IMG/VR virus record: IMGVR_UViG_3300045988_113164
Source: a virus
Direction: 5' to 3' (one strand)
DNA: 13,848 bases
Shown here: one piece after another, positions 1 through 13,848 of the stretch
Layout of the letters: each line of letters starts with the position of its first letter
Position numbering within the stretch: position 1 is the first letter of the stretch
Notes under the pieces: generated by a model
Told to the model about the DNA's origin: nothing
Database searches by the model: none
Seen by the model: the letters and a program-made list of their open reading frames with translations, nothing else
Program-made: the position numbers and the translations under genes

Positions 1-134
1 GTGGTAGTACTTTAGCACATCACAGTGGTAACGCGTTAACGTGGTAAAGTGTTAAAGTTCCCACATGCGCTCGTCTATGCACTGGAATTATTAACAGCAC
101 AAGTTTTAGTTAATATAAAATAGTTGTTGACAAA
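1..134. repeat. Left inverted terminal repeat (ITR-L), 134 bp
   Basis: I reverse-complemented 13715-13848 block by block. It is identical to 1-134, and the first mismatch is at position 135 (t versus a). GTGGTA occurs at 1-6, 25-30 and 41-46. The palindrome TAACGCGTTA is at 29-38. Confidence 0.97.
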
Positions 135-155
135 TTATAAAAATTGAGTTATAAT
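127..155 (+). promoter_or_regulatory. Left-end early promoter: TTGACA, 17-nt spacer, TATAAT
   Basis: -35 TTGACA at 127-132, inside the ITR. The spacer is 17 nt. -10 TATAAT at 150-155, outside the ITR. Both hexamers are perfect sigma-A/sigma-70 consensus. The first RBS and ATG lie about 45 nt downstream. Confidence 0.8.
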
Positions 156-199: not shown

Positions 200-607
200 A
201 TGAAGGTCAAAGATTTATATTTATGTTGTGATAATATTGAGGTGGATGACATAGTGGAAATTATATTCAAAGATGATGACACATTGATGTATGTATGTTT
301 GGGAGCGGCTACATATGATATACTTGATGAAACTGTTGATTCTTTCAATGTTACTGACGAGGACGTCACTATAAAATTAAGTAGTAGCCCACGAAATGTG
401 GAAAGGAAGGAGGGCATGTTATTTAAAGATTTATATTCTGCATGTTCAAATTTAAAAAGCGCTATGAGCGTGGAAGTCACGAAAGGAACATATGAAGAGA
501 GGTTAACAGTAGACGAATGTTTGGAAAAATATGGCGCAGACGAAGTTGCACGTTTTAGAATGTGCGGTGTTACGTCACAGTTTCTGAGAGTTGTTTTGAA
601 AGGATGA
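200..607 (+). CDS. Early protein made of two fused copies of the terminal small-protein family (135 aa)
   Basis: RBS AGAAAGG at 184-190 and ATG at 200. The track's TTG at 191 is less likely. The N-terminal half starts MKVKDLYLCCDN. The C-terminal half starts at an internal Met (ATG 416) as MLFKDLYSACSNLK and contains LEKYGADEV. Both halves resemble the right-end proteins, which start MTLRKLFEMCTNCN (this copy also carries LEKYGEYKV) and MTLRDVLLACGNLKNG. The linker residues ERKEG are encoded by gaaaggaaggaggg, which looks like a relic RBS. Confidence 0.7.
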   Translation: MKVKDLYLCCDNIEVDDIVEIIFKDDDTLMYVCLGAATYDILDETVDSFNVTDEDVTIKLSSSPRNVERKEGMLFKDLYSACSNLKSAMSVEVTKGTYEERLTVDECLEKYGADEVARFRMCGVTSQFLRVVLKG

Positions 608-613
608 TAATAT

Positions 614-703
614 ATGAAAGAAACGATACAGATCATGATCATTGCGCTATTAGCGGTGCTACTTATCATAGCACCGCCTACGCTATATCTATTCGGTTTC
701 TGA
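614..703 (+). CDS. Possible 29-aa single-pass membrane peptide
   Basis: Read by hand: MKETIQIMIIALLAVLLIIAPPTLYLFGF. RBS GAAAGGA lies 9 nt upstream and overlaps the stop codon of the preceding gene. The ORF is too short for the supplied track and has a hydrophobic core. Confidence 0.35.
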   Translation: MKETIQIMIIALLAVLLIIAPPTLYLFGF

Positions 704-1336: not shown

Positions 1337-3370
1337 ATGATAGCAGATGTATATGCCTTTGACTATTCGATTTTTAAAAAAGCAGGAAATGTGAAAAGAA
1401 AGAGAGGTTCACGGAATAAGAAAAACTATAAAAATCTGGTTTGTGCTTTTGACATTGAAACAACCCGAATAAAAGAAATCGAGCAAGCCGTCATGTATAT
1501 CTGGCAATTTCAAGTTGACGAAAAAGTAACTGTGATAGGGAGAACATGGAGAGACTTCGACTACTTTATGAGGGCTATCGCATCTGACTTGGAAGATACG
1601 GAATATGTCGTTGTTTATGTTCATAACCTTTCTTTTGAGTTCCAGTTTCTTTCGGGAATCTATCCTTTTTCAAAGGAAGAGGTTTTCGCTTTGGACAAAC
1701 GAAAAGTTTGCAAGTGTGAAATGTTTGAGCATTTTGAGTTCCGATGCTCCTACATTCAAACAAACATGAGTTTACAGACATTTACAGACAAAATGAACGT
1801 TAAGCATAAGAAACTTTCCGGCGATCTTGATTATAACGTGGAGCGTTATTCATATACACCGCTAAGTGACGAAGAATTTGCATATTGTATTAACGATGTG
1901 CAAGGTCTTGTAGAAGCGATTAAGACGGAAATGAAAAATGATGGCGATACATTGTATACAATCCCGCTTACCTCAACCGGATACGTTCGGCGTGATGTGA
2001 AAAACGCACTTGAAGGCAACCGTTGGATTATGGGAATCCAGCCGGATTTCGATGTCTATCAAGTAGCAAGAGAATCGTTCCGCGGCGGCAACACACATGC
2101 GAACCGATTCTATGCCGGATGGATTCTTGAGGGTGTCCATTCCGCCGATCGTTCCTCAAGTTATCCGGGTGTTCAGTGCAACAGAGCCTATCCGGTCACC
2201 CGATTTCACAAGATTTCAAAACCCGTTCCTGATGCAGGTCAGATCATTGATCTAATGAAAAGAAGAGAAAAAGCAATTTTGATGAGGGTATCATTCAAGG
2301 GAGTGTCCTTAAATGATTACTCTTGGGGGTGTCCCTATCTGGCAAAAGACAAGTGCAGAACAATTGTAAATGGAGTATTCGATAATGGGAGAATATTAAG
2401 CGCAGATTACTTGGAGACTTCCATTACGGACGTGGATTTAAGAATCATAGTCGAAGAGTATCATATTGACGAAATTGTACCGATTGAAGTTTATACCGCG
2501 CGCTATGGAAAACTCCCCGCCGCTATGATTGAAACCATTTGTCTGTATTATAAGAAGAAAACAGAGTTGAAGGACGTAGAAGGGCAGGAATATTTTTATA
2601 TGAAAAGTAAAAATAAGCTTAACTCTATCTATGGCATGACAGCGCAAGACCCTGTCAAAGAGTCAATATTGTATCAAGATGAAGAATTTACAATTGATAC
2701 GTCAAAGACGAAAAAAGAACTATTGGAAGAGTTCATGAAACGGGCGTTCATTCCTTACACCTGGGGTGTTTGGTGTACCGCATGGGCACGGTATGAACTG
2801 GAACGGGGTATGCGTATGGTGACAGATCAAGGCGGAACGTTTATTTACTGTGACACGGATTCTATCAAATATTTAGGTGATGTCGATTTCACAATCTACA
2901 ATAACGAAAAAATAAAGTTGTCTAAAGAGAACGGCGCATGGGCTACAGACCCTCAAGGTGTGGATCATTACATGGAAGTTTATGAACAGGAGAAAGACGC
3001 TGATCGTTTCATTACATGGGGAGCGAAAAAGTACGCATACGAAGCTGACGGGAAATTAAAGATCACGGTAGCAGGAGTGCCGAAAAAAGCTGGGGCGGAA
3101 GAATTAAAGAGGAAAGGTGGCTTGGATGTGTTAAAGCCCGGTTTTGTATTCAGCGATTGCGGCAAACTGGAAACTGTTTACAACGACAAACCGGAAATAA
3201 CAAAATATAAAAATAAGGACGGCAAGACGATAGAAATAACGAAAAATGTTGTGCTTAGACCAACGACATATGCAGTAGGCATAACGAAGGAATATGAAGA
3301 TATTTTACAAGATGCTCTATTGTATAATCAATCAGTAAAAATCTTAAAAGGAACAAATTTATTATCTTGA
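1337..3370 (+). CDS. Family-B DNA polymerase, protein-primed type (677 aa)
   Basis: Motifs read in the translation: ExoI FDIETT, ExoII HNLSFEFQFL, ExoIII YCINDVQGL, motif A DRSSSYPG (Dx2SxYP), motif B KNKLNSIYGM, motif C YCDTDS and KxY GAKKYAY. Each parallels the phi29 gp2 motif: HNLKFD, YIKNDIQ, DVNSLYP, KLMLNSLYG and YCDTDS. Confidence 0.95.
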   Translation: MIADVYAFDYSIFKKAGNVKRKRGSRNKKNYKNLVCAFDIETTRIKEIEQAVMYIWQFQVDEKVTVIGRTWRDFDYFMRAIASDLEDTEYVVVYVHNLSFEFQFLSGIYPFSKEEVFALDKRKVCKCEMFEHFEFRCSYIQTNMSLQTFTDKMNVKHKKLSGDLDYNVERYSYTPLSDEEFAYCINDVQGLVEAIKTEMKNDGDTLYTIPLTSTGYVRRDVKNALEGNRWIMGIQPDFDVYQVARESFRGGNTHANRFYAGWILEGVHSADRSSSYPGVQCNRAYPVTRFHKISKPVPDAGQIIDLMKRREKAILMRVSFKGVSLNDYSWGCPYLAKDKCRTIVNGVFDNGRILSADYLETSITDVDLRIIVEEYHIDEIVPIEVYTARYGKLPAAMIETICLYYKKKTELKDVEGQEYFYMKSKNKLNSIYGMTAQDPVKESILYQDEEFTIDTSKTKKELLEEFMKRAFIPYTWGVWCTAWARYELERGMRMVTDQGGTFIYCDTDSIKYLGDVDFTIYNNEKIKLSKENGAWATDPQGVDHYMEVYEQEKDADRFITWGAKKYAYEADGKLKITVAGVPKKAGAEELKRKGGLDVLKPGFVFSDCGKLETVYNDKPEITKYKNKDGKTIEITKNVVLRPTTYAVGITKEYEDILQDALLYNQSVKILKGTNLLS

Positions 3371-3436
3371 CAGGAATTAAAAAGAGAGTTATCATAGATA
3401 TGCAACAAAGAACAATACAAAGAAAGGAGCAGAAAC

Positions 3437-4129: not shown

Positions 4130-5170
4130 ATGAAGGAAAAGAACATTTATGACCGTAATGGTTTCATCAATATACCGGCTATTTATAACATACCAGTACC
4201 GTTCATATTTATTGTAGGCGGTCGGGGAACTGGAAAAACGTATGGTGTCTGCAAATTCGCAATCGAGAGAAAGATCAAATTCGCACTGATGAGACGAACA
4301 CAAACACAGTCTGATCTGATTTCCAAACCGGAATTTTCACCACTCAAACCCGTCCTGAGCGATATGAACCGGATGTTCAAGGCCGTTTCATTGACAAAAC
4401 AGAACAGTGCGTTTTATGAAACGGATATGGAAGGAACGATTATTTCACCAGAGCCGTTCTGTTATTCACTTGCACTGTCAACCATTTCGAATATGCGTGG
4501 TTTTGATGCCAGTGATATCTCCCTCATCTTCTATGATGAGTTTATCGCAGAAGCGCACGAACGACCATTGAAAAATGAAGCAGAAGCCTTCTTTAACTGT
4601 TACGAAACAATTAACCGTAACCGTGAATTGAAAGGGATTGCACCTGTCAAAGTGATCTGTGCGGCCAACAGCAATAACATGGCAAATGAACTCTTTATAT
4701 CGTTGGGACTGGTGCTGAGAGCGGAAAAGATGTATCAGAACGGAACATCTATCTGGATAGATAAAGAACGGGGTCTAGCACTGATTATTTGTCAAGACAG
4801 CCCGGTTTCCGAAGCGAAAGAAAAAACAGCATTGTACAATTTGGTGTCAAGGGATTCTGACTTTTATCAGATGTCATTAAAGAACGTGTTCACGAAAGAC
4901 AGAGCGGATAACATCGGCAGTAGAAACATCAAGGAGTTTAAACCATTAGTCCATGTGGGCGAAATGTATATCTATCGACACAAGTCACGACAGGAGTACT
5001 ACGTCACCTCATTTAAGTCAGGAGTATTCAAAGAGAACTACACCATGAGCGAAAATGATAAAGTGCGTTTCCGCTTGAAATATCGCTACCTGTGGATTGC
5101 TTTCCTATCACGCTCCTTGTATCTTGAGAACTACATCATCCAAGTTCTTTTTACAAAATGTTTCATGTGA
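4130..5170 (+). CDS. DNA encapsidation (packaging) ATPase, phi29 gp16-like (346 aa)
   Basis: Walker A FIVGGRGTGKTY parallels gp16 FVIGARGIGKSY. FALMRRT parallels FIYVRRY. Walker B LIFYDEFI parallels IVFDEFI. NRNRELKGIAPVKVICAANS parallels RNRERVRCICLSNA. Confidence 0.9.
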   Translation: MKEKNIYDRNGFINIPAIYNIPVPFIFIVGGRGTGKTYGVCKFAIERKIKFALMRRTQTQSDLISKPEFSPLKPVLSDMNRMFKAVSLTKQNSAFYETDMEGTIISPEPFCYSLALSTISNMRGFDASDISLIFYDEFIAEAHERPLKNEAEAFFNCYETINRNRELKGIAPVKVICAANSNNMANELFISLGLVLRAEKMYQNGTSIWIDKERGLALIICQDSPVSEAKEKTALYNLVSRDSDFYQMSLKNVFTKDRADNIGSRNIKEFKPLVHVGEMYIYRHKSRQEYYVTSFKSGVFKENYTMSENDKVRFRLKYRYLWIAFLSRSLYLENYIIQVLFTKCFM

Positions 5171-5175
5171 AACAT
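5158..5175. promoter_or_regulatory. 18-bp palindrome, copy 2 (centre TG, the reverse complement of copies 1 and 3)
   Basis: ATGTTTCA-TG-TGAAACAT. It spans the ATPase stop codon (5168-5170) and ends 1 nt before the -35 hexamer of the following promoter. Confidence 0.75.
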
Positions 5176-5341: not shown

Positions 5342-5539
5342 ATGGATGCAAACACTATAATGACGTTGGTGCAGAATTTAGGTTTTCCTGTCATTTGTTG
5401 CGGGGCGCTGTATTGGCGTATGCTGAAAGAGTCCGACAATCATAAGGCAGAAATGGAGAAAGTTACTGACGCATTAAACAACAACACACAGGCACTCATC
5501 CGATTGGAAGAATCATTGAAAGGAGAAAAAGAAAAATGA
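5342..5539 (+). CDS. Small membrane protein (65 aa), YvrJ-like, possible holin-type function
   Basis: RBS AGAGAGG precedes ATG 5342. Sequence MDANTIMTLVQNLGFPVICCGALYWRML has one hydrophobic helix with a GFP motif, then a charged coiled-coil tail. This is the pattern I recall for the YvrJ family. The track start at 5246 would translate through the terminator hairpin. Confidence 0.6.
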   Translation: MDANTIMTLVQNLGFPVICCGALYWRMLKESDNHKAEMEKVTDALNNNTQALIRLEESLKGEKEK

Positions 5540-5874
5540 AACAGGAAGACATTCTAGCATTAGCAAAGGCAGGATTCACAAGGGATCAGATTGTTGCGCT
5601 TGCAGGTTTACAGGCCGCCCCGGTACAGCAGACCGCCCCGGTACAGCAGACCGCTCCGGTACAGCAGACCGCCCCGGTACAGCAGGCCGCTCCGGTACAG
5701 CAGGCCGCTCCTGCACAGCCTGGAACATCTGGCGACCCGGTTTTGGATGCCCTGTTGGGGCTTCGCGAAGATATGAAAAAACAGGCGTTGCTGTTTTCAT
5801 CTCAGCCGCCAACACAGCAGGAAACAAGCGATGATATTCTTGCGTCCATCATTAACCCGAAAGGAGAAAAATAA
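5536..5874 (+). CDS. Scaffolding protein candidate (112 aa) with a tandem APVQQ(T/A) repeat
   Basis: ATGA start/stop overlap with the upstream gene. It lies immediately upstream of the capsid gene, as phi29 gp7 does. It is small and acidic with helical ends around a PQ-rich repeat. Confidence 0.6.
   Translation: MKQEDILALAKAGFTRDQIVALAGLQAAPVQQTAPVQQTAPVQQTAPVQQAAPVQQAAPAQPGTSGDPVLDALLGLREDMKKQALLFSSQPPTQQETSDDILASIINPKGEK
5617..5724 (+). repeat. 18-bp tandem repeat, five good copies plus one degenerate copy (GCCCCGGTACAGCAGACC)
   Basis: Units at 5617, 5635, 5653, 5671 and 5689, with a degenerate unit at 5707. They encode APVQQT/APVQQA in frame. Confidence 0.95.
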
Positions 5875-7100: not shown

Positions 7101-7117
7101 TGTTTCACATGAAACAT
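7100..7117. promoter_or_regulatory. 18-bp palindrome, copy 3 (identical to copy 1)
   Basis: ATGTTTCA-CA-TGAAACAT. It starts on the last base of the capsid TAA and ends 17 nt before the tail-knob ATG, directly 5' of its RBS. Confidence 0.75.
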
Positions 7118-10693: not shown

Positions 10694-11501
10694 CCATGAC
10701 GAATCCCTTCTGAATGGTTTGATTGAAAATTTACCGAACAAATTCGGAATACCGTCCAGTTACGAGGATTCCTACTACACCGATGTAACCATTGACCCTC
10801 AGACCGTAACAGAAAATCTGCTGGTCGAATGTGCTGAGTTTGAAATTTTGTATTCAGACTCCGACGCATTAAAGAGGATCATCACTATATGGTCTGCAAA
10901 AGAGAAACCCGTGTGGCAGAAAATGTTTAACACGATCTGCTATAAGTACAATCCAATCTGGAACAAAGATGGAAAAACTACGTGGACGGAACAGCAGACC
11001 ACAAGCGGAACTAAAACGGAAATGGAAAAAGGAACAAAAACAACCAGCGAGGACGGTTCAATCACTGATGATTATACCTCAACTAGCACCACGACAAATA
11101 CAACAACTGGTGCCGGCACAAATACCCGCGCTGGAAATGATGAAACAACCGGAAAGGTCAGTGCTTATGACAGCACGGATTTTCAGAACAGGGACAAGAC
11201 AAACAGTACCTCTAGTGAAAATAGCACAACGGAAAGCAACGAAGAGTTCACCGGAAAAGGAAACGTCACAAACAAAGGGAAGAAAACAACTACAAACGCA
11301 GGAGATGAAAAACATGATGTTTCACGTGAAACAAATGACAGTAATACAGGTGAAACAACTCATGAGCAACGAGAAACGGGTAACATCGGTGTTACTATGA
11401 CTCAACAGATGATCACCGCGGAACGTGAAATTGCCATGTTCAATATCATTGATTTTATCATCAATGATTTTAAAGAGCGTTTCTGTTTACGGATTTATTA
11501 A
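10662..11501 (+). CDS. Lower collar protein, phi29 gp11-like (279 aa), with a Thr/Ser/Asn-rich central region
   Basis: The start is reassigned to ATG 10662 (MATLSLLGLYNHDE), preceded by GGGGGCGAGGA. The track start at 10593 lies inside the portal gene. The position after the portal fits. YKYNPIWNKDG and the C-terminal GNIGVTMTQQMITAEREIAMFNIIDFIINDFKERFCLRIY match the lower-collar pattern as I recall it. Confidence 0.7.
   Translation: MATLSLLGLYNHDESLLNGLIENLPNKFGIPSSYEDSYYTDVTIDPQTVTENLLVECAEFEILYSDSDALKRIITIWSAKEKPVWQKMFNTICYKYNPIWNKDGKTTWTEQQTTSGTKTEMEKGTKTTSEDGSITDDYTSTSTTTNTTTGAGTNTRAGNDETTGKVSAYDSTDFQNRDKTNSTSSENSTTESNEEFTGKGNVTNKGKKTTTNAGDEKHDVSRETNDSNTGETTHEQRETGNIGVTMTQQMITAEREIAMFNIIDFIINDFKERFCLRIY
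11317..11334. promoter_or_regulatory. 18-bp palindrome, copy 4 (imperfect, intragenic)
   Basis: ATGTTTCA-CG-TGAAACAA. It matches the consensus arms at 15 of 16 positions, and the 14-nt core GTTTCACGTGAAAC is a perfect palindrome. It lies inside the lower-collar ORF. Confidence 0.5.
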
Positions 11502-11515
11502 AGGAGGATGCGAAA

Positions 11516-13021
11516 ATGGGATTATTCGATCAATTTCCCTACACAAATTTTCATGAACTGAACCTCGACTGGATTGTTGAGCAGATGCGTAGTCAGAAAG
11601 ATTACGTTGATAAAATTGATGATCATGTTGCCGAAGTTGATAAACATGTTACTGAGGTTGATAAACATGTTACCGAGGTTAATAACAATGTTTTAAATGT
11701 AGATAAACACATTGATGCAAAAGTGGCAGAAATAACACCACCTCTAGTCAAAAGCACTGTGGAACAGATGTCGGAAGATGGTAAACTGCTGGCAAATAGC
11801 GTATTTAACGTTGTTCTGCACGGGGCTGATAATACGGGTGTTACTGATGCCAGCTCCGCTATACAGTATACAATTGATAAGTACCATTTCGCTTATATCC
11901 CAAATGGACTTTATAAAGTTGATAAGACGTTAATAATTGATAGTGGATGTGTGCTGATCGGGCAAAGTTGCATTGATACTATTCTCAACGTCTCAGCAAT
12001 CAATGGTATTGTAACTAAAGATTTTTTCAGTAAAACCGCAACAGGAACGGAAGCGGGAATATATGGATTTACAATCGCCAATTTACATCTGACCGGACTT
12101 AATACAGAAAATGCTGGATATGGTATCGCTGTATACGGGTACAGGTATAGAATCACAAATTGCTTTATTGAAAAATTTCACACCGGATTATACAGCGAAT
12201 ACAACAAATCAACAGGCTTTGCCCCTAGTGGCAGTACAATGGAATCGCTCATCTCACATTGCTTAATACAGCGCAATATATCAACCGCTATGGTATTCAG
12301 AGGGCCGAGTGACTCGCGTATTGAGGATGTTGATTTTTCAAACAGCCCCTATGGTATCGTGTTTGAAACCACTGATAGCTCGTGGGCGTACGGAACAAAG
12401 GCAATTAACTGTCATGGTTATCGCATTACCGCCGTGGGATGTTATACAGTTAAAGATAATATTAGTCTGATCAATTGCATCGGAGAAAGTAGCTATAATG
12501 GTGTTGATATCGCAGGATCGGGAATCGTACTGGCTAATTGTAGTTTCTACAACAACGACACAAGCGGTATTTACTTTTCGACTGGTCGTGATATTTCAAT
12601 ATTCGATGCCACTCTGCAGGGAAACAAAGGCAGTGAAATCCATTTACAAAGTCAGCTTAGTGACAGCTATATCACTGCTAGAATCGTAGGAACACCTAGC
12701 GCAGTACTCAGCGGCGGAGGAGGCGTTGATATCAGAACTACTAGCATAAAAGTATATTCTAATGTTGATGCTAGTATCTATAATAGTCCTAAATCATTGC
12801 CAATCACTGGTGTAGGAGATGTAACCGCGAATACGGCGCACAAGGCATCTGATAACTATTGTGTGCTCGCCTATCAGACAGGCGGTGAGGGATTCAGCGT
12901 TAATGACGGCACAGGTGACAAACCGATCGGAAATGCGCCTTGCTTCTTTGTGCCTGCTGGAGGGACATGGAAATGTACAACAGAGCCGGGAAGTATGTAC
13001 TATCAGCCAATCCTGTTTTAA
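11516..13021 (+). CDS. Tail appendage / tailspike receptor-binding protein with a predicted right-handed beta-helix (depolymerase-like) domain (501 aa)
   Basis: The N-terminus FPYTNFHELNLDWIVEQM is a common tail-fibre anchor motif in phages of Gram-positive hosts. A heptad-repeat coiled coil follows (VDKHVTE x2 plus degenerate copies). HGADNTGVTDASSAIQYTID is a pectate-lyase-3-like start (GDG.TDD..AIQ). Repetitive G/N/I-rung sequence follows. The position corresponds to phi29 gp12. Confidence 0.75.
   Translation: MGLFDQFPYTNFHELNLDWIVEQMRSQKDYVDKIDDHVAEVDKHVTEVDKHVTEVNNNVLNVDKHIDAKVAEITPPLVKSTVEQMSEDGKLLANSVFNVVLHGADNTGVTDASSAIQYTIDKYHFAYIPNGLYKVDKTLIIDSGCVLIGQSCIDTILNVSAINGIVTKDFFSKTATGTEAGIYGFTIANLHLTGLNTENAGYGIAVYGYRYRITNCFIEKFHTGLYSEYNKSTGFAPSGSTMESLISHCLIQRNISTAMVFRGPSDSRIEDVDFSNSPYGIVFETTDSSWAYGTKAINCHGYRITAVGCYTVKDNISLINCIGESSYNGVDIAGSGIVLANCSFYNNDTSGIYFSTGRDISIFDATLQGNKGSEIHLQSQLSDSYITARIVGTPSAVLSGGGGVDIRTTSIKVYSNVDASIYNSPKSLPITGVGDVTANTAHKASDNYCVLAYQTGGEGFSVNDGTGDKPIGNAPCFFVPAGGTWKCTTEPGSMYYQPILF
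11636..11677 (+). repeat. 21-bp tandem repeat x2 (GTTGATAAACATGTTAC[T/C]GAG) within a longer degenerate heptad array (about 11606-11719)
   Basis: Units at 11636-11656 and 11657-11677 differ at one base. The flanking units are degenerate. They encode VDKHVTE heptads. Confidence 0.9.
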
Positions 13022-13023
13022 AT

Positions 13024-13049
13024 AAAAGAGGGCTTATAGCCCTCTTTTT
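13024..13049. terminator. Bidirectional intrinsic terminator between the convergent late and right-early operons
   Basis: AAAAGAGGGCT (13024-13034), loop TAT, AGCCCTCTTTT (13038-13048). An A-run precedes it and a T-run follows, so it can act on both strands. It sits between the stops at 13021 (+) and 13048 (-). Confidence 0.8.
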
Positions 13050-13251
13050 AAATTAAGCATATGATTTTATCACCGTTCTTATGAAAGAAGATTTTGAAAT
13101 AATCTACTTCCATTTTCATATATGCGGAATTTTTTTCAAAACAGCCACTCACTGTATCTTGATAGATACTCTTGTTATTCATATCTGTTATCATAACCAC
13201 TGAACCGTTTTTCAGATTGCCACATGCTAATAATACATCTCTTAATGTCAT
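13048..13251 (-). CDS. Terminal small-protein family member (67 aa)
   Basis: MTLRDVLLACGNLKNGSVVMI..., preceded by RBS AAAGGAGA. It is a paralog of 13265-13450 and of both halves of 200-607. Confidence 0.7.
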   Translation of the reverse strand: MTLRDVLLACGNLKNGSVVMITDMNNKSIYQDTVSGCFEKNSAYMKMEVDYFKIFFHKNGDKIICLI

Positions 13252-13264
13252 AATATTCTCCTTT

Positions 13265-13450
13265 CTATGTTCTCATCAAGATCACTTCTATGATTCTGCC
13301 ACGGATAGCAAAACAATAAACTTTGTATTCTCCGTATTTTTCTAGGCCGTCCAAGATTGGTAATACCTCGACATTGCCGTTAATCATAACCTTGAAAAAT
13401 TTCCTTTCGTTGCAATTGGTACACATTTCAAATAGCTTTCTTAATGTCAT
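13265..13450 (-). CDS. Terminal small-protein family member (61 aa)
   Basis: MTLRKLFEMCTNCNERKFFKVMI...LEKYGEYKVYCFAI...IEVIL, preceded by RBS AAAGGAG. LEKYG is shared with the C-terminal half of the left-end protein. Confidence 0.7.
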   Translation of the reverse strand: MTLRKLFEMCTNCNERKFFKVMINGNVEVLPILDGLEKYGEYKVYCFAIRGRIIEVILMRT

Positions 13451-13464
13451 GTGATTACTCCTTT

Positions 13465-13661
13465 CTATGCTTCTTCATTCTCCATTATAAATATAACTAA
13501 ACCAGCATCCTTCATATCAAACTTGTGAACCTTAAAATTTAATACTTCCTTTGGCATATAAAGATAACCACCTTCGTATATCAGCGTAGTTCCCTTATAA
13601 CACGTACTTCCGAGTTCAGTTTCCAACCAATGTACATATCCCGTAAATTTCTAATAGTCAT
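13465..13661 (-). pseudogene. Frameshifted member of the terminal small-protein family
   Basis: ATG at 13661 is preceded by AAGGAGGG. Frame 0 reads MTIRNLRDMYIGWKLNSEVRVIRELR and then stops at 13581-13583. The -1 frame continues KGTTLIYEGGYLYMPKEVLNFKVHKFDMKDAGLVIFIMENEEA to the stop at 13465-13467. Joined, they give about 65 aa that align with the paralogs. Confidence 0.6.
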
Positions 13662-13693
13662 TTCCTTGACCCTCCTTTTTATTTGTTAAATAA

Positions 13694-13722
13694 AGTATAG
13701 CATGAAATAACTATTTTGTCAA
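13694..13722 (-). promoter_or_regulatory. Right-end early promoter: TTGACA, 17-nt spacer, TGcTATACT
   Basis: On the minus strand, -35 TTGACA occupies 13717-13722, inside the ITR and mirroring 127-132. The spacer is 17 nt. An extended TG precedes the -10 TATACT at 13694-13699. The RBS and ATG at 13661 lie about 30 nt downstream. Confidence 0.75.
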
Positions 13723-13848
13723 CAACTATTTTATATTAACTAAAACTTGTGCTGTTAATAATTCCAGTGCATAGACGAGCGCATGTGGGAACTTTAACAC
13801 TTTACCACGTTAACGCGTTACCACTGTGATGTGCTAAAGTACTACCAC
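13715..13848. repeat. Right inverted terminal repeat (ITR-R), 134 bp
   Basis: Exact reverse complement of 1-134. Confidence 0.97.

Follow-up and report, generated by a model that had tools for sequence, protein, structure and literature searches.

A previously undescribed family of ~62-residue proteins at both ends of a phi29-like phage genome

The window analyzed here, IMG/VR virus record IMGVR_UViG_3300045988_113164 in its full length of 13,848 bp, is the complete linear genome of a phi29-like, protein-primed podophage. We found that the ~62-residue proteins encoded at both ends of this genome form one previously undescribed protein family, whose genes code for protein and evolve under purifying selection. 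Though new, the family is of a familiar kind, that of diversified early accessory genes at phage genome ends, and we are confident of its anatomy and evolutionary history as described below. The best explanation of the data as a whole joins that anatomy and history to an early role in which the proteins would bind host or phage proteins; we give this reading a probability of roughly 0.55. The members in this genome, of which E is only a probable one, are five segments, named A to E, two of which are fused into a single gene (L numbers denote related loci and P numbers database proteins; E-values are from leave-out hidden Markov models [HMMs], described below):

200..607, + strand: A-B fusion gene, 135 residues, two HMM domains joined by a linker predicted to be disordered
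200..385, + strand: domain A (residues 1-62), net charge -12, isoelectric point (pI) 4.05; E = 2e-9; stand-alone ortholog P0136
373..387, + strand: fusion scar, A-run one base shorter than in L083/L084; the former TAG TAG (382-387) now reads AGT AGT AG (Ser-Ser-Ser)
386..415, + strand: linker (residues 63-72, SPRNVERKEG), a former intergenic spacer that is now translated, with a relic ribosome-binding site GAAAGGAAGG at 401-410
416..604, + strand: domain B (residues 73-135); E = 2.4e-10; stand-alone orthologs P0132/L085 and L083
13048..13251, - strand: D, 67 residues, the innermost member, present at every right end examined; E = 2.1e-9
13265..13450, - strand: C, 61 residues, with a LEKYG motif, present in about half of right ends; E = 1.3e-4
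13465..13661, - strand: E, probable frameshifted pseudogene with intact 63-65-residue orthologs; one T missing near 13599-13601

Family membership and distribution

A first-pass annotation of this DNA had proposed that the five segments share one architecture. Its coordinates (200-607, 416, 13265-13450, 13048-13251, and 13465-13661) all agree with the sequence, and the LEKYG motif does occur in two copies, B and C. Pairwise identity among the segments is only 16-30%. In shuffle tests on local alignments, four pairs stand out (B-D, z = 9.3; B-C, z = 7.0; A-B, z = 4.7; A-D, z = 3.2), and A-C and every pairing with E fall below significance. Pairwise comparison thus leaves some room for the view that the resemblance is due to chance or composition. 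Profile comparison does not. For each segment we built leave-one-subfamily-out HMMs from database members <38% identical to it and searched 15,197 open reading frames (ORFs); A, B, C, and D were each recovered over their full length. The motif M.[LIVF][RKEQH].[LVIAM]...C.N occurs 39 times in the same ORFs, and 38 of the 39 occurrences are family genes adjoining genome ends. Five columns are invariant in an alignment of 26 sequences (M1, C10, N12, V44, and F47), and A, B, C, and D have all five together with the full-length HMM match. Given leave-out E-values from 1e-4 to 2e-10, 204 database relatives with the five invariant columns, and the same predicted fold, we regard a chance resemblance as already refuted. 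Membership of the proposed family is therefore solid for A through D and borderline for E, which lacks C10 and N12 and scores 13 bits.

A profile search of 5.8 billion proteins returned 204 clusters at 90% identity, none with a Pfam domain. The listed clusters are nearly all 62-68 residues long, many of them on 12-14-kb contigs and the remainder on shorter fragments. An exhaustive HMMER search of 1.84 billion representatives gave 44 clusters at 50% identity (E <= 1e-3). The family thus comprises about 200 clusters, all from uncultured ~13-kb gut phages. One database protein of 212 residues (P0153) contains three tandem repeats of the family N-terminus (MNRQDLYLCCKNLRK...) followed by out-of-family sequence; a fragment of the gene may have been amplified in tandem at the DNA level, or the arrangement may come from faulty assembly.

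The first-pass annotation recognized no known domain, and the searches agree. Pfam has no family at E <= 0.01 for A-B, C, or D; PHROGs v4 gives matches at E >= 0.0055 at best, to function-unknown families and from single members; NCBIfam 20 has nothing at E <= 0.1 for A-B, C, D, and E-, F-, G-, and H-type members; and PDB sequence profiles have no match for the family. A review of phi29-like phages (PMC11476376) gave nothing on the family under the terms searched.

Among GenBank sequences, a DNA search found a sole relative, MT839052, a 4.6-kb human fecal fragment without annotation (83% identity); tblastn with D found MT839052 again and nothing more, so that neither search gave a cultured phage with the family. 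Relatives of ~13 kb are numerous in IMG/VR: 20 loci have a major capsid protein (MCP) identity >=77%, and 60 loci lie at 47-58%. Iterated HMM, broadened HMM, and motif searches did not find the family in the 60 more distant relatives (MCP ~50%).

Segment E is the least typical member. It keeps M1 and has V-x-x-F at the positions of V44 and F47, and it scores E = 0.084 against the family HMM. Searches of the first 81 loci with blastn, tblastn, and phmmer gave no E homolog; orthologs surfaced only in the search of 5.8 billion proteins (P0125-P0127, N-terminus MTIRNLRDMYIGWKLNSEVRVY..., requiring no frameshift). In an hhalign comparison the E group is collinear with the profile of the family (70.6%, E = 3.9e-5), and E is probably a distant member of the family. 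In the DNA alignment, this genome has GTGTTTATAA where intact E has GTG-TTATAA, one T being lost at ~13599-13601, and this copy is best read as a recent pseudogene produced by a one-base deletion. We consider it highly improbable that E is instead expressed by programmed frameshifting, or that the frameshift is an assembly error in an intact gene. The two frames combined do rebuild a full-length ortholog of P0125, and the promoter, ribosome-binding site, and start codon are intact. However, the site (GTG-TT-ATA) has neither a slippery heptamer nor a long homopolymer, and the intact orthologs do without any frameshift. A truncated 30-residue E gene call on record in six contigs also speaks against a one-off assembly error, although these contigs may come from samples that are not independent.

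Slots, fusions, and movement between ends

The genome ends carry a 137-bp inverted terminal repeat (ITR), and a strong promoter-like site adjoins each array:

1..137, unstranded: left ITR, containing the -35 hexamer of the left promoter; 87-98% identity to the ends of relatives
13712..13848, unstranded: right ITR, counterpart of 1..137, 99% complementary over 137 nucleotides
127..155, + strand: left terminal promoter-like site (TTGACA, 17 nucleotides, TATAAT), 12/12 sigma-70 consensus, the best match in the genome
13694..13722, - strand: right terminal promoter-like site (TTGACA, 17 nucleotides, TG-n-TATACT), 11/12 with extended -10, the second-best match
13025..13047, unstranded: GC-rich hairpin (GAGGGC-TTATA-GCCCTC) with A/T-run flanks, between the convergent fiber gene and D; read from the sequence and not in the automated scan

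The arrays form an ordered slot system with a universal and conserved D, a frequent C, and ITR-proximal slots that hold interchangeable subtypes (A-B, B, E, F, G, and H). At right ends D is always innermost, beside a hairpin that it has in common with the convergent fiber gene (in this genome the hairpin looks like a bidirectional terminator), and C lies upstream of D in about half. The right ITR-proximal slot contains E in this genome, F in L001, L006, L010, and L013, G in L020, H in L019, A and B in L083/84, or B in L085, or is empty. The left ITR-proximal slot contains A-B in this genome and L015, F in L006, G in L011-13, L017, and L021, H in L008 and L019, or E in L092-94, or is empty. One and the same subtype therefore sits at the left end in some genomes and at the right end in others. 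There are one to four copies per end and one to five per genome, the array making up ~6% of the 13.8-kb genome here. The ratio of nonsynonymous to synonymous substitution rates (dN/dS) is 0.135 for C, and D has a median of 0.043 over 109 pairs.

Flanking sequences recur at opposite ends as well. The right-end promoter and leader of this genome are almost identical to the left-end ones that drive intact E in L092 and L093, and the promoter region ahead of A at the fiber end of L083 matches the left end of this genome. Among close relatives the ITR may be as short as 137 bp or as long as 426 bp. In L006 it is 426 bp long (1-426 and 13293-13718; 99% complementary) and takes in a complete F gene at either end; in L019 the inverted copies have decayed and lie further inward (176-386 and 13091-13304). 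The gene-containing ITR and the inverted copies point to growth and shrinkage of the ITR as the likely vehicle by which family genes would move between the two ends.

The claim that the family occupies both genome termini is borne out in this genome, with its 99% complementary ITRs. It does not define the family: In the distant phi29-like relatives L090 and L091, which have another layout, members head a central early operon, just upstream of an SSB-like gene (SSB, single-stranded DNA-binding protein), an ORF of terminal-protein (TP) size, and the gene for type B DNA polymerase (PolB). The member in L090 is followed by a 64-residue ORF with a similar N-terminus and no C.N motif, which is reminiscent of E. 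Judging from gene order, the common denominator of the family is its position at the start of an early operon, "early" rather than "terminal."

The A-B gene is the best-documented case of fusion. Stand-alone forms of both domains are known (P0136, 61 residues, for A; P0132, 62 residues, for B), and in L083 and L084 the two are adjacent separate genes, ...ACTATAAAAATTAAG TAG TAG tttatgagttcgcgcaagacataGAAAGGAAGGttgtatATG, or, elided after the stops, ...ATAAAAATTAAG TAG TAG ...GAAAGGAAGGttgtatATG. The fused versions in this genome and L015 read ATAAAA-TTAAGTAGTAG and have one A fewer in the DNA alignment, with the result that the two stop codons are read as Ser-Ser and the spacer and ribosome-binding site are translated. 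The linker DNA is homologous to the A-B intergenic spacer of L083/L084, GGAAAGGAAGG included, and further small indels in the fused genes leave the frame open. In this genome GAAAGGAAGGAGGG lies in frame at 401-414, and codons 401-415 encode E-R-K-E-G, abutting the ATG at 416. From this alignment we conclude that the fusion arose by a one-nucleotide deletion that removed the stop of A, the spacer with its ribosome-binding site becoming the linker. The first-pass annotation had already taken ERKEG for a former intergenic ribosome-binding site, and the separate genes in relatives confirm it.

Fusions of the A-B type occur in at least six distinct sequences that are 49-99% identical (P0121-P0124, P0111, and L015). 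Compared with L015, dN/dS is 0.16 for A and 0.31 for B (at dS 0.5-1.0), and both halves of the fusion are under purifying selection. These observations, together with the loss of the internal start in P0123 and P0124/L015, dispose of the second half of the chance argument, namely that two genes were joined only by an error of annotation or sequencing. In those proteins the internal Met is replaced by Ile (ATA in L015), so that B can be produced there only within an obligate fusion. In this genome the relic ribosome-binding site, five nucleotides ahead of ATG 416, is essentially as in L083, and with both elements intact the genome may make free B, from an internal start at 416, alongside the A-B fusion.

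Other neighboring paralogs appear to have fused independently, so that fusion has, as far as the sequences tell, occurred repeatedly. In P0111, from the right end of L099, B is joined to a truncated paralog other than A, which is 54% identical to P0167 (E = 4e-18) and matches A only weakly (E = 0.004). P0001 is a read-through from C into D. By Rosetta-stone reasoning, the repeated fusion of neighbors suggests that the paralogs act together physically.

Predicted structure and possible roles

The AlphaFold2 model of domain B, based on 26 sequences, has a predicted local distance difference test score (pLDDT) of 88.7 and a predicted template modeling score (pTM) of 0.71. It consists of a helix (3-9), two strands (18-23 and 26-31), a second helix (32-39), and two further strands (43-50 and 56-61), i.e., alpha-beta-beta-alpha-beta-beta. 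The full A-B protein is modeled with lower confidence (pLDDT 71.8, pTM 0.64), that of domain A being lower because its alignment is shallow, and linker residues 63-70 are predicted to be disordered (pLDDT <50). The elements of domain A (helix 3-9, strands 18-23 and 29-33, helix 39-42, strands 45-53 and 56-61) follow the same order as in B; unrelated folds, which would have told against common descent, are thus not what the predictions give for these two domains. The modeled layout of the family is an N-terminal helix with MT[LIV][RK][DE]L...C.N, a beta-hairpin, a helix, and a second beta-hairpin.

A Foldseek search of the PDB with the B-domain and A-B models gave nothing at E < 0.1. The weak top matches include beta-grasp-like domains (ubiquitin-like and protein G B1), with whose order of elements the beta-beta-alpha-beta-beta core of the family is compatible. 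We rejected this resemblance as nonsignificant (TM-scores 0.38-0.50, E = 0.4-0.94), and unlike those domains the family has an extra conserved N-terminal helix bearing the C.N motif. In BFVD, Foldseek matched only uncharacterized small phage proteins of 57-143 residues (TM-score 0.65-0.81, E = 5e-4 to 1e-2). Among them, A0A8S5VFX8, A0A8S5TQU2, A0A1X9Q0W0, and A0A1W6JKN6 (Lactococcus phage AM4) have a similar predicted small alpha+beta fold, but at 9-22% sequence identity to the family and with no known function they carry no mechanistic information, and any common ancestry is putative.

Each array is directly preceded by one of the two best sigma-70 sites in the genome, and the -35 hexamers of both fall inside the ITR. 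That the family genes come first behind a strong terminal promoter at each end, as the first-pass annotation stated, is thus correct (12/12 and 11/12 consensus), and we infer that they are transcribed early. A third near-consensus site (11/12) at 3367-3395 (+) comes directly after the DNA polymerase gene, before an 83-residue ORF and the SSB gene, and is a possible internal promoter, early or middle.

Under our preferred explanation, the family proteins, which are small and mostly acidic to neutral, would be expressed immediately on DNA entry and would bind host or phage proteins stoichiometrically. Net charge has a median of -1, pI is below 7 in 74-81% of members, and A reaches -12. The proteins would probably act as homo- or heterodimers, the recurrent fusions then being single-chain dimers. 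Judging from position, size, and turnover, host takeover or counter-defense would be the business of the variable outer members, and D would have a conserved core early task. This assignment to a functional class, of small and probably dimeric early binders divided between outer members and D, is tentative and somewhat short of an even chance. No enzymatic or DNA-binding domain or motif was recognized in the family in Pfam, PHROGs, NCBIfam, and PDB sequence searches, and no helix-turn-helix regulator gene was recognized beside the arrays in the ORF list or Pfam scan. The Foldseek matches in the PDB include an entry of Nme1Cas9 with its inhibitor AcrIIC3, at a nonsignificant E = 1.6.

Several points weigh against this explanation. 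No experiment or homology ties any member to a target or phenotype, and early expression is based on consensus promoters only. Dimerization is deduced from the fusions alone, the pTM of 0.64 for A-B on a shallow alignment not being decisive, and the evidence from P0001 and L099 comes from single short metagenomic contigs in which assembly errors are possible. The 60 more distant relatives (~50% MCP identity) are without the family, so its role must be dispensable or replaced there. Finally, D is universal and its dN/dS is as low as that of the capsid protein, which fits a core function better than an arms race. The host-takeover or anti-defense role that the first-pass annotation suggested for the diversified arrays therefore needs refining, since D does not look like an arms-race gene.

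The same properties of D supply the main rival, a replication or transcription accessory role, especially for D. In this account the family, or at least D, would be counterparts of phi29 p6, p4, p1, or p16.7, not directed at the host, that activate origins at the ITRs, switch early to late transcription, or organize protein-primed replication. We think this unlikely. D is present at every right end with a dN/dS of 0.043. In this genome the putative TP and PolB genes come directly after family members, in L090 and L091 the SSB-like gene, TP-sized ORF, and PolB follow them, and Pfam recognizes no p6- or p4-like gene elsewhere in the genome.

A conserved 16-nucleotide palindrome, TGTTTCACRTGAAACA, could also serve such proteins as an operator. 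Four copies are present (704-719, 5159-5174, 7101-7116, and 11318-11333), compared with 0.01 expected by chance, and three of them lie close to gene boundaries, one ahead of the putative TP gene, one at the stop codon of the ATPase gene, and one past that of the MCP gene. Of 95 loci, 48 conserve the palindrome, the distant clade being represented among them, and in some relatives it stands immediately ahead of family genes. It is a candidate operator or RNA hairpin. However, the distant clade retains the palindrome and the replication module without the family, and the family is unlikely to be the binder of a palindrome that is conserved where the family is absent.

Other features also disagree with a replication role. 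The members are not basic but acidic to neutral, and neither Pfam nor NCBIfam identifies a DNA-binding domain in them; they have no Foldseek or sequence match in the PDB, and thus no similarity to p6 or p4; and they occur in one to five copies per genome with subtypes freely swapped. A p6-like identity was rejected on structural grounds, as p6, a dsDNA-binding protein that organizes the genome, is described as starting with a beta-strand in an elongated novel fold (PMC10899789), with an oligomerization hairpin and an acidic tail, whereas the family model starts with a helix, and no Pfam, PDB sequence, or Foldseek match (E < 0.1) supports it.

A further possibility, which we judge distinctly improbable, is that the variable members mediate competition between phages, by superinfection exclusion or by sabotage of a co-infecting relative. 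The contents of the outer slot turn over fast among phages with MCP identity >77% and near-identical ITRs and promoters. Co-infection and recombination among them are probable, to judge from the modules exchanged between ends. Nothing speaks directly for a role in competition, sequence data alone cannot separate competition from anti-defense, and known exclusion proteins are often membrane proteins, whereas this family has no transmembrane segment.

The early binding role can be extended into a more specific and rather doubtful proposal, in which the ITR-proximal slots are a cassette-exchange system. The ITRs would expand and contract through panhandle or end-to-end copying during protein-primed replication, and members would pass between the two ends and between co-infecting phages. 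Fusions would fix favorable heterodimers as single chains. The shuttling of family members would then yield combinatorial homo- and heterodimeric inhibitors tuned to the defenses of gut Clostridia hosts. If true, this would be a miniature phage counterpart of the terminal multigene families of poxviruses and African swine fever virus (ASFV), with a previously unknown anti-defense fold.

Genomic surroundings and comparison with known systems

Between the left family slot and the 197-residue putative TP gene lies a small neighbor that does not belong to the family:

614..703, + strand: 29-residue hydrophobic ORF (MKETIQIMIIALLAVLLIIAPPTLYLFGF)

This ORF is kept at the same position in most relatives. 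L008 has an extra copy at its right end, and in some database entries (P0026 and P0050) it is read through into a D-type gene.

At the other end, the tail fiber gene (11516-13021, +; pectate-lyase/beta-helix) is only 30-39% identical in most close relatives with MCP identities of 77-95%, and 81-84% identical in L001 and L004. This points to a receptor-binding module that has been swapped directly beside the conserved D gene. A 112-residue ORF (5536-5874, +) contains five tandem QTAPVQ/QAAPVQ repeats at the position expected for the scaffold or head-decoration gene. The genome also encodes a protein-primed PolB, a phi29-type SSB, a gp16-type packaging ATPase, a phi29-type MCP, and an upper-collar connector. 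Despite the phi29-type ATPase, connector, and capsid protein, an Rfam scan of the whole genome gave no match to a phi29-type pRNA; its one match was a sub-threshold small RNA at 13021-13116.

The host can be addressed only through more distant relatives. L096, L097, and L098 (MCP ~55-58%) were binned in metagenome-assembled genomes of Acetatifactor sp., Wujia sp. (both Lachnospiraceae), and a Bacteroidaceae bacterium. A Lachnospiraceae host is suggested by this co-binning, which is inconsistent and, at ~54-58% MCP identity, too weak to be used for host assignment.

Most of the phage gene content that lacks an explanation consists of small early ORFans, which have been the source of many anti-defense and host-takeover proteins. 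The family described here offers about 200 clusters at 90% identity (44 at 50%), a confident fold model, invariant residues, one universal member, and swappable subtypes. Three aspects lift it above the ordinary. The first is the record of a fusion base by base, with one A deleted, stops turned to serines, and a ribosome-binding site turned to linker; as fusion has occurred more than once, a physical interaction of the paralogs is predicted. The second is the exchange of cassettes between ITR-proximal slots. Movement of genes from end to end on a protein-primed linear genome, with one ITR engulfing a whole gene, could make these phages a small model for ITR dynamics. The third is a natural experiment, since the same scaffold exists in a strongly conserved version (D) and in versions with fast turnover. 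Human gut metagenomes are rich in these phages, none of which is represented in culture, and this makes candidate host-interaction genes useful entry points.

The closest parallel in genome type is phi29 itself. Its right early operon (ORFs 16.5-16.9 and gene 17) and the left-end p56 encode small, early, mostly nonessential or accessory proteins behind strong sigma-A-type promoters, and p56 is a ~56-residue acidic dimeric inhibitor of host uracil-DNA glycosylase. By analogy, the family resembles these proteins in small size, in its apparent place in early operons, and in its setting in a protein-primed podophage with ITRs. Pfam, PDB sequence, and PDB Foldseek searches detected no similarity to them in sequence or fold, and neither p56 nor Ugi nor SAUGI is among the PDB sequence matches or the top 50 Foldseek PDB matches. 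To our knowledge, the small early ORFs of phi29 are not paralogs of one another and are not present in duplicate at both ends, and neither exchange between ends nor fusion is known for them.

A second parallel is with T7 gp0.3 (Ocr) and the T5 pre-early genes in the terminal repeat, which are genes at genome ends behind the first promoters and encode small, often acidic proteins that bind host proteins. They have no homology to the family and are single genes rather than a family of paralogs.

In architecture, the nearest likeness is to the terminal multigene families of large eukaryotic viruses. The MGF110, MGF360, and MGF505 genes of ASFV and the ITR-proximal host-range genes of poxviruses are arrays of diverged paralogs beside ITRs with roles in host interaction, and they gain and lose copies and transpose from end to end by ITR expansion and contraction. 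Those viruses have genomes of 150-300 kb and much larger proteins, compared with single domains of ~62 residues in a 13.8-kb genome here. The likeness is one of analogy, not homology, and lies in the ITR-adjacent arrays, the variation in copy number, and the exchange between ends.

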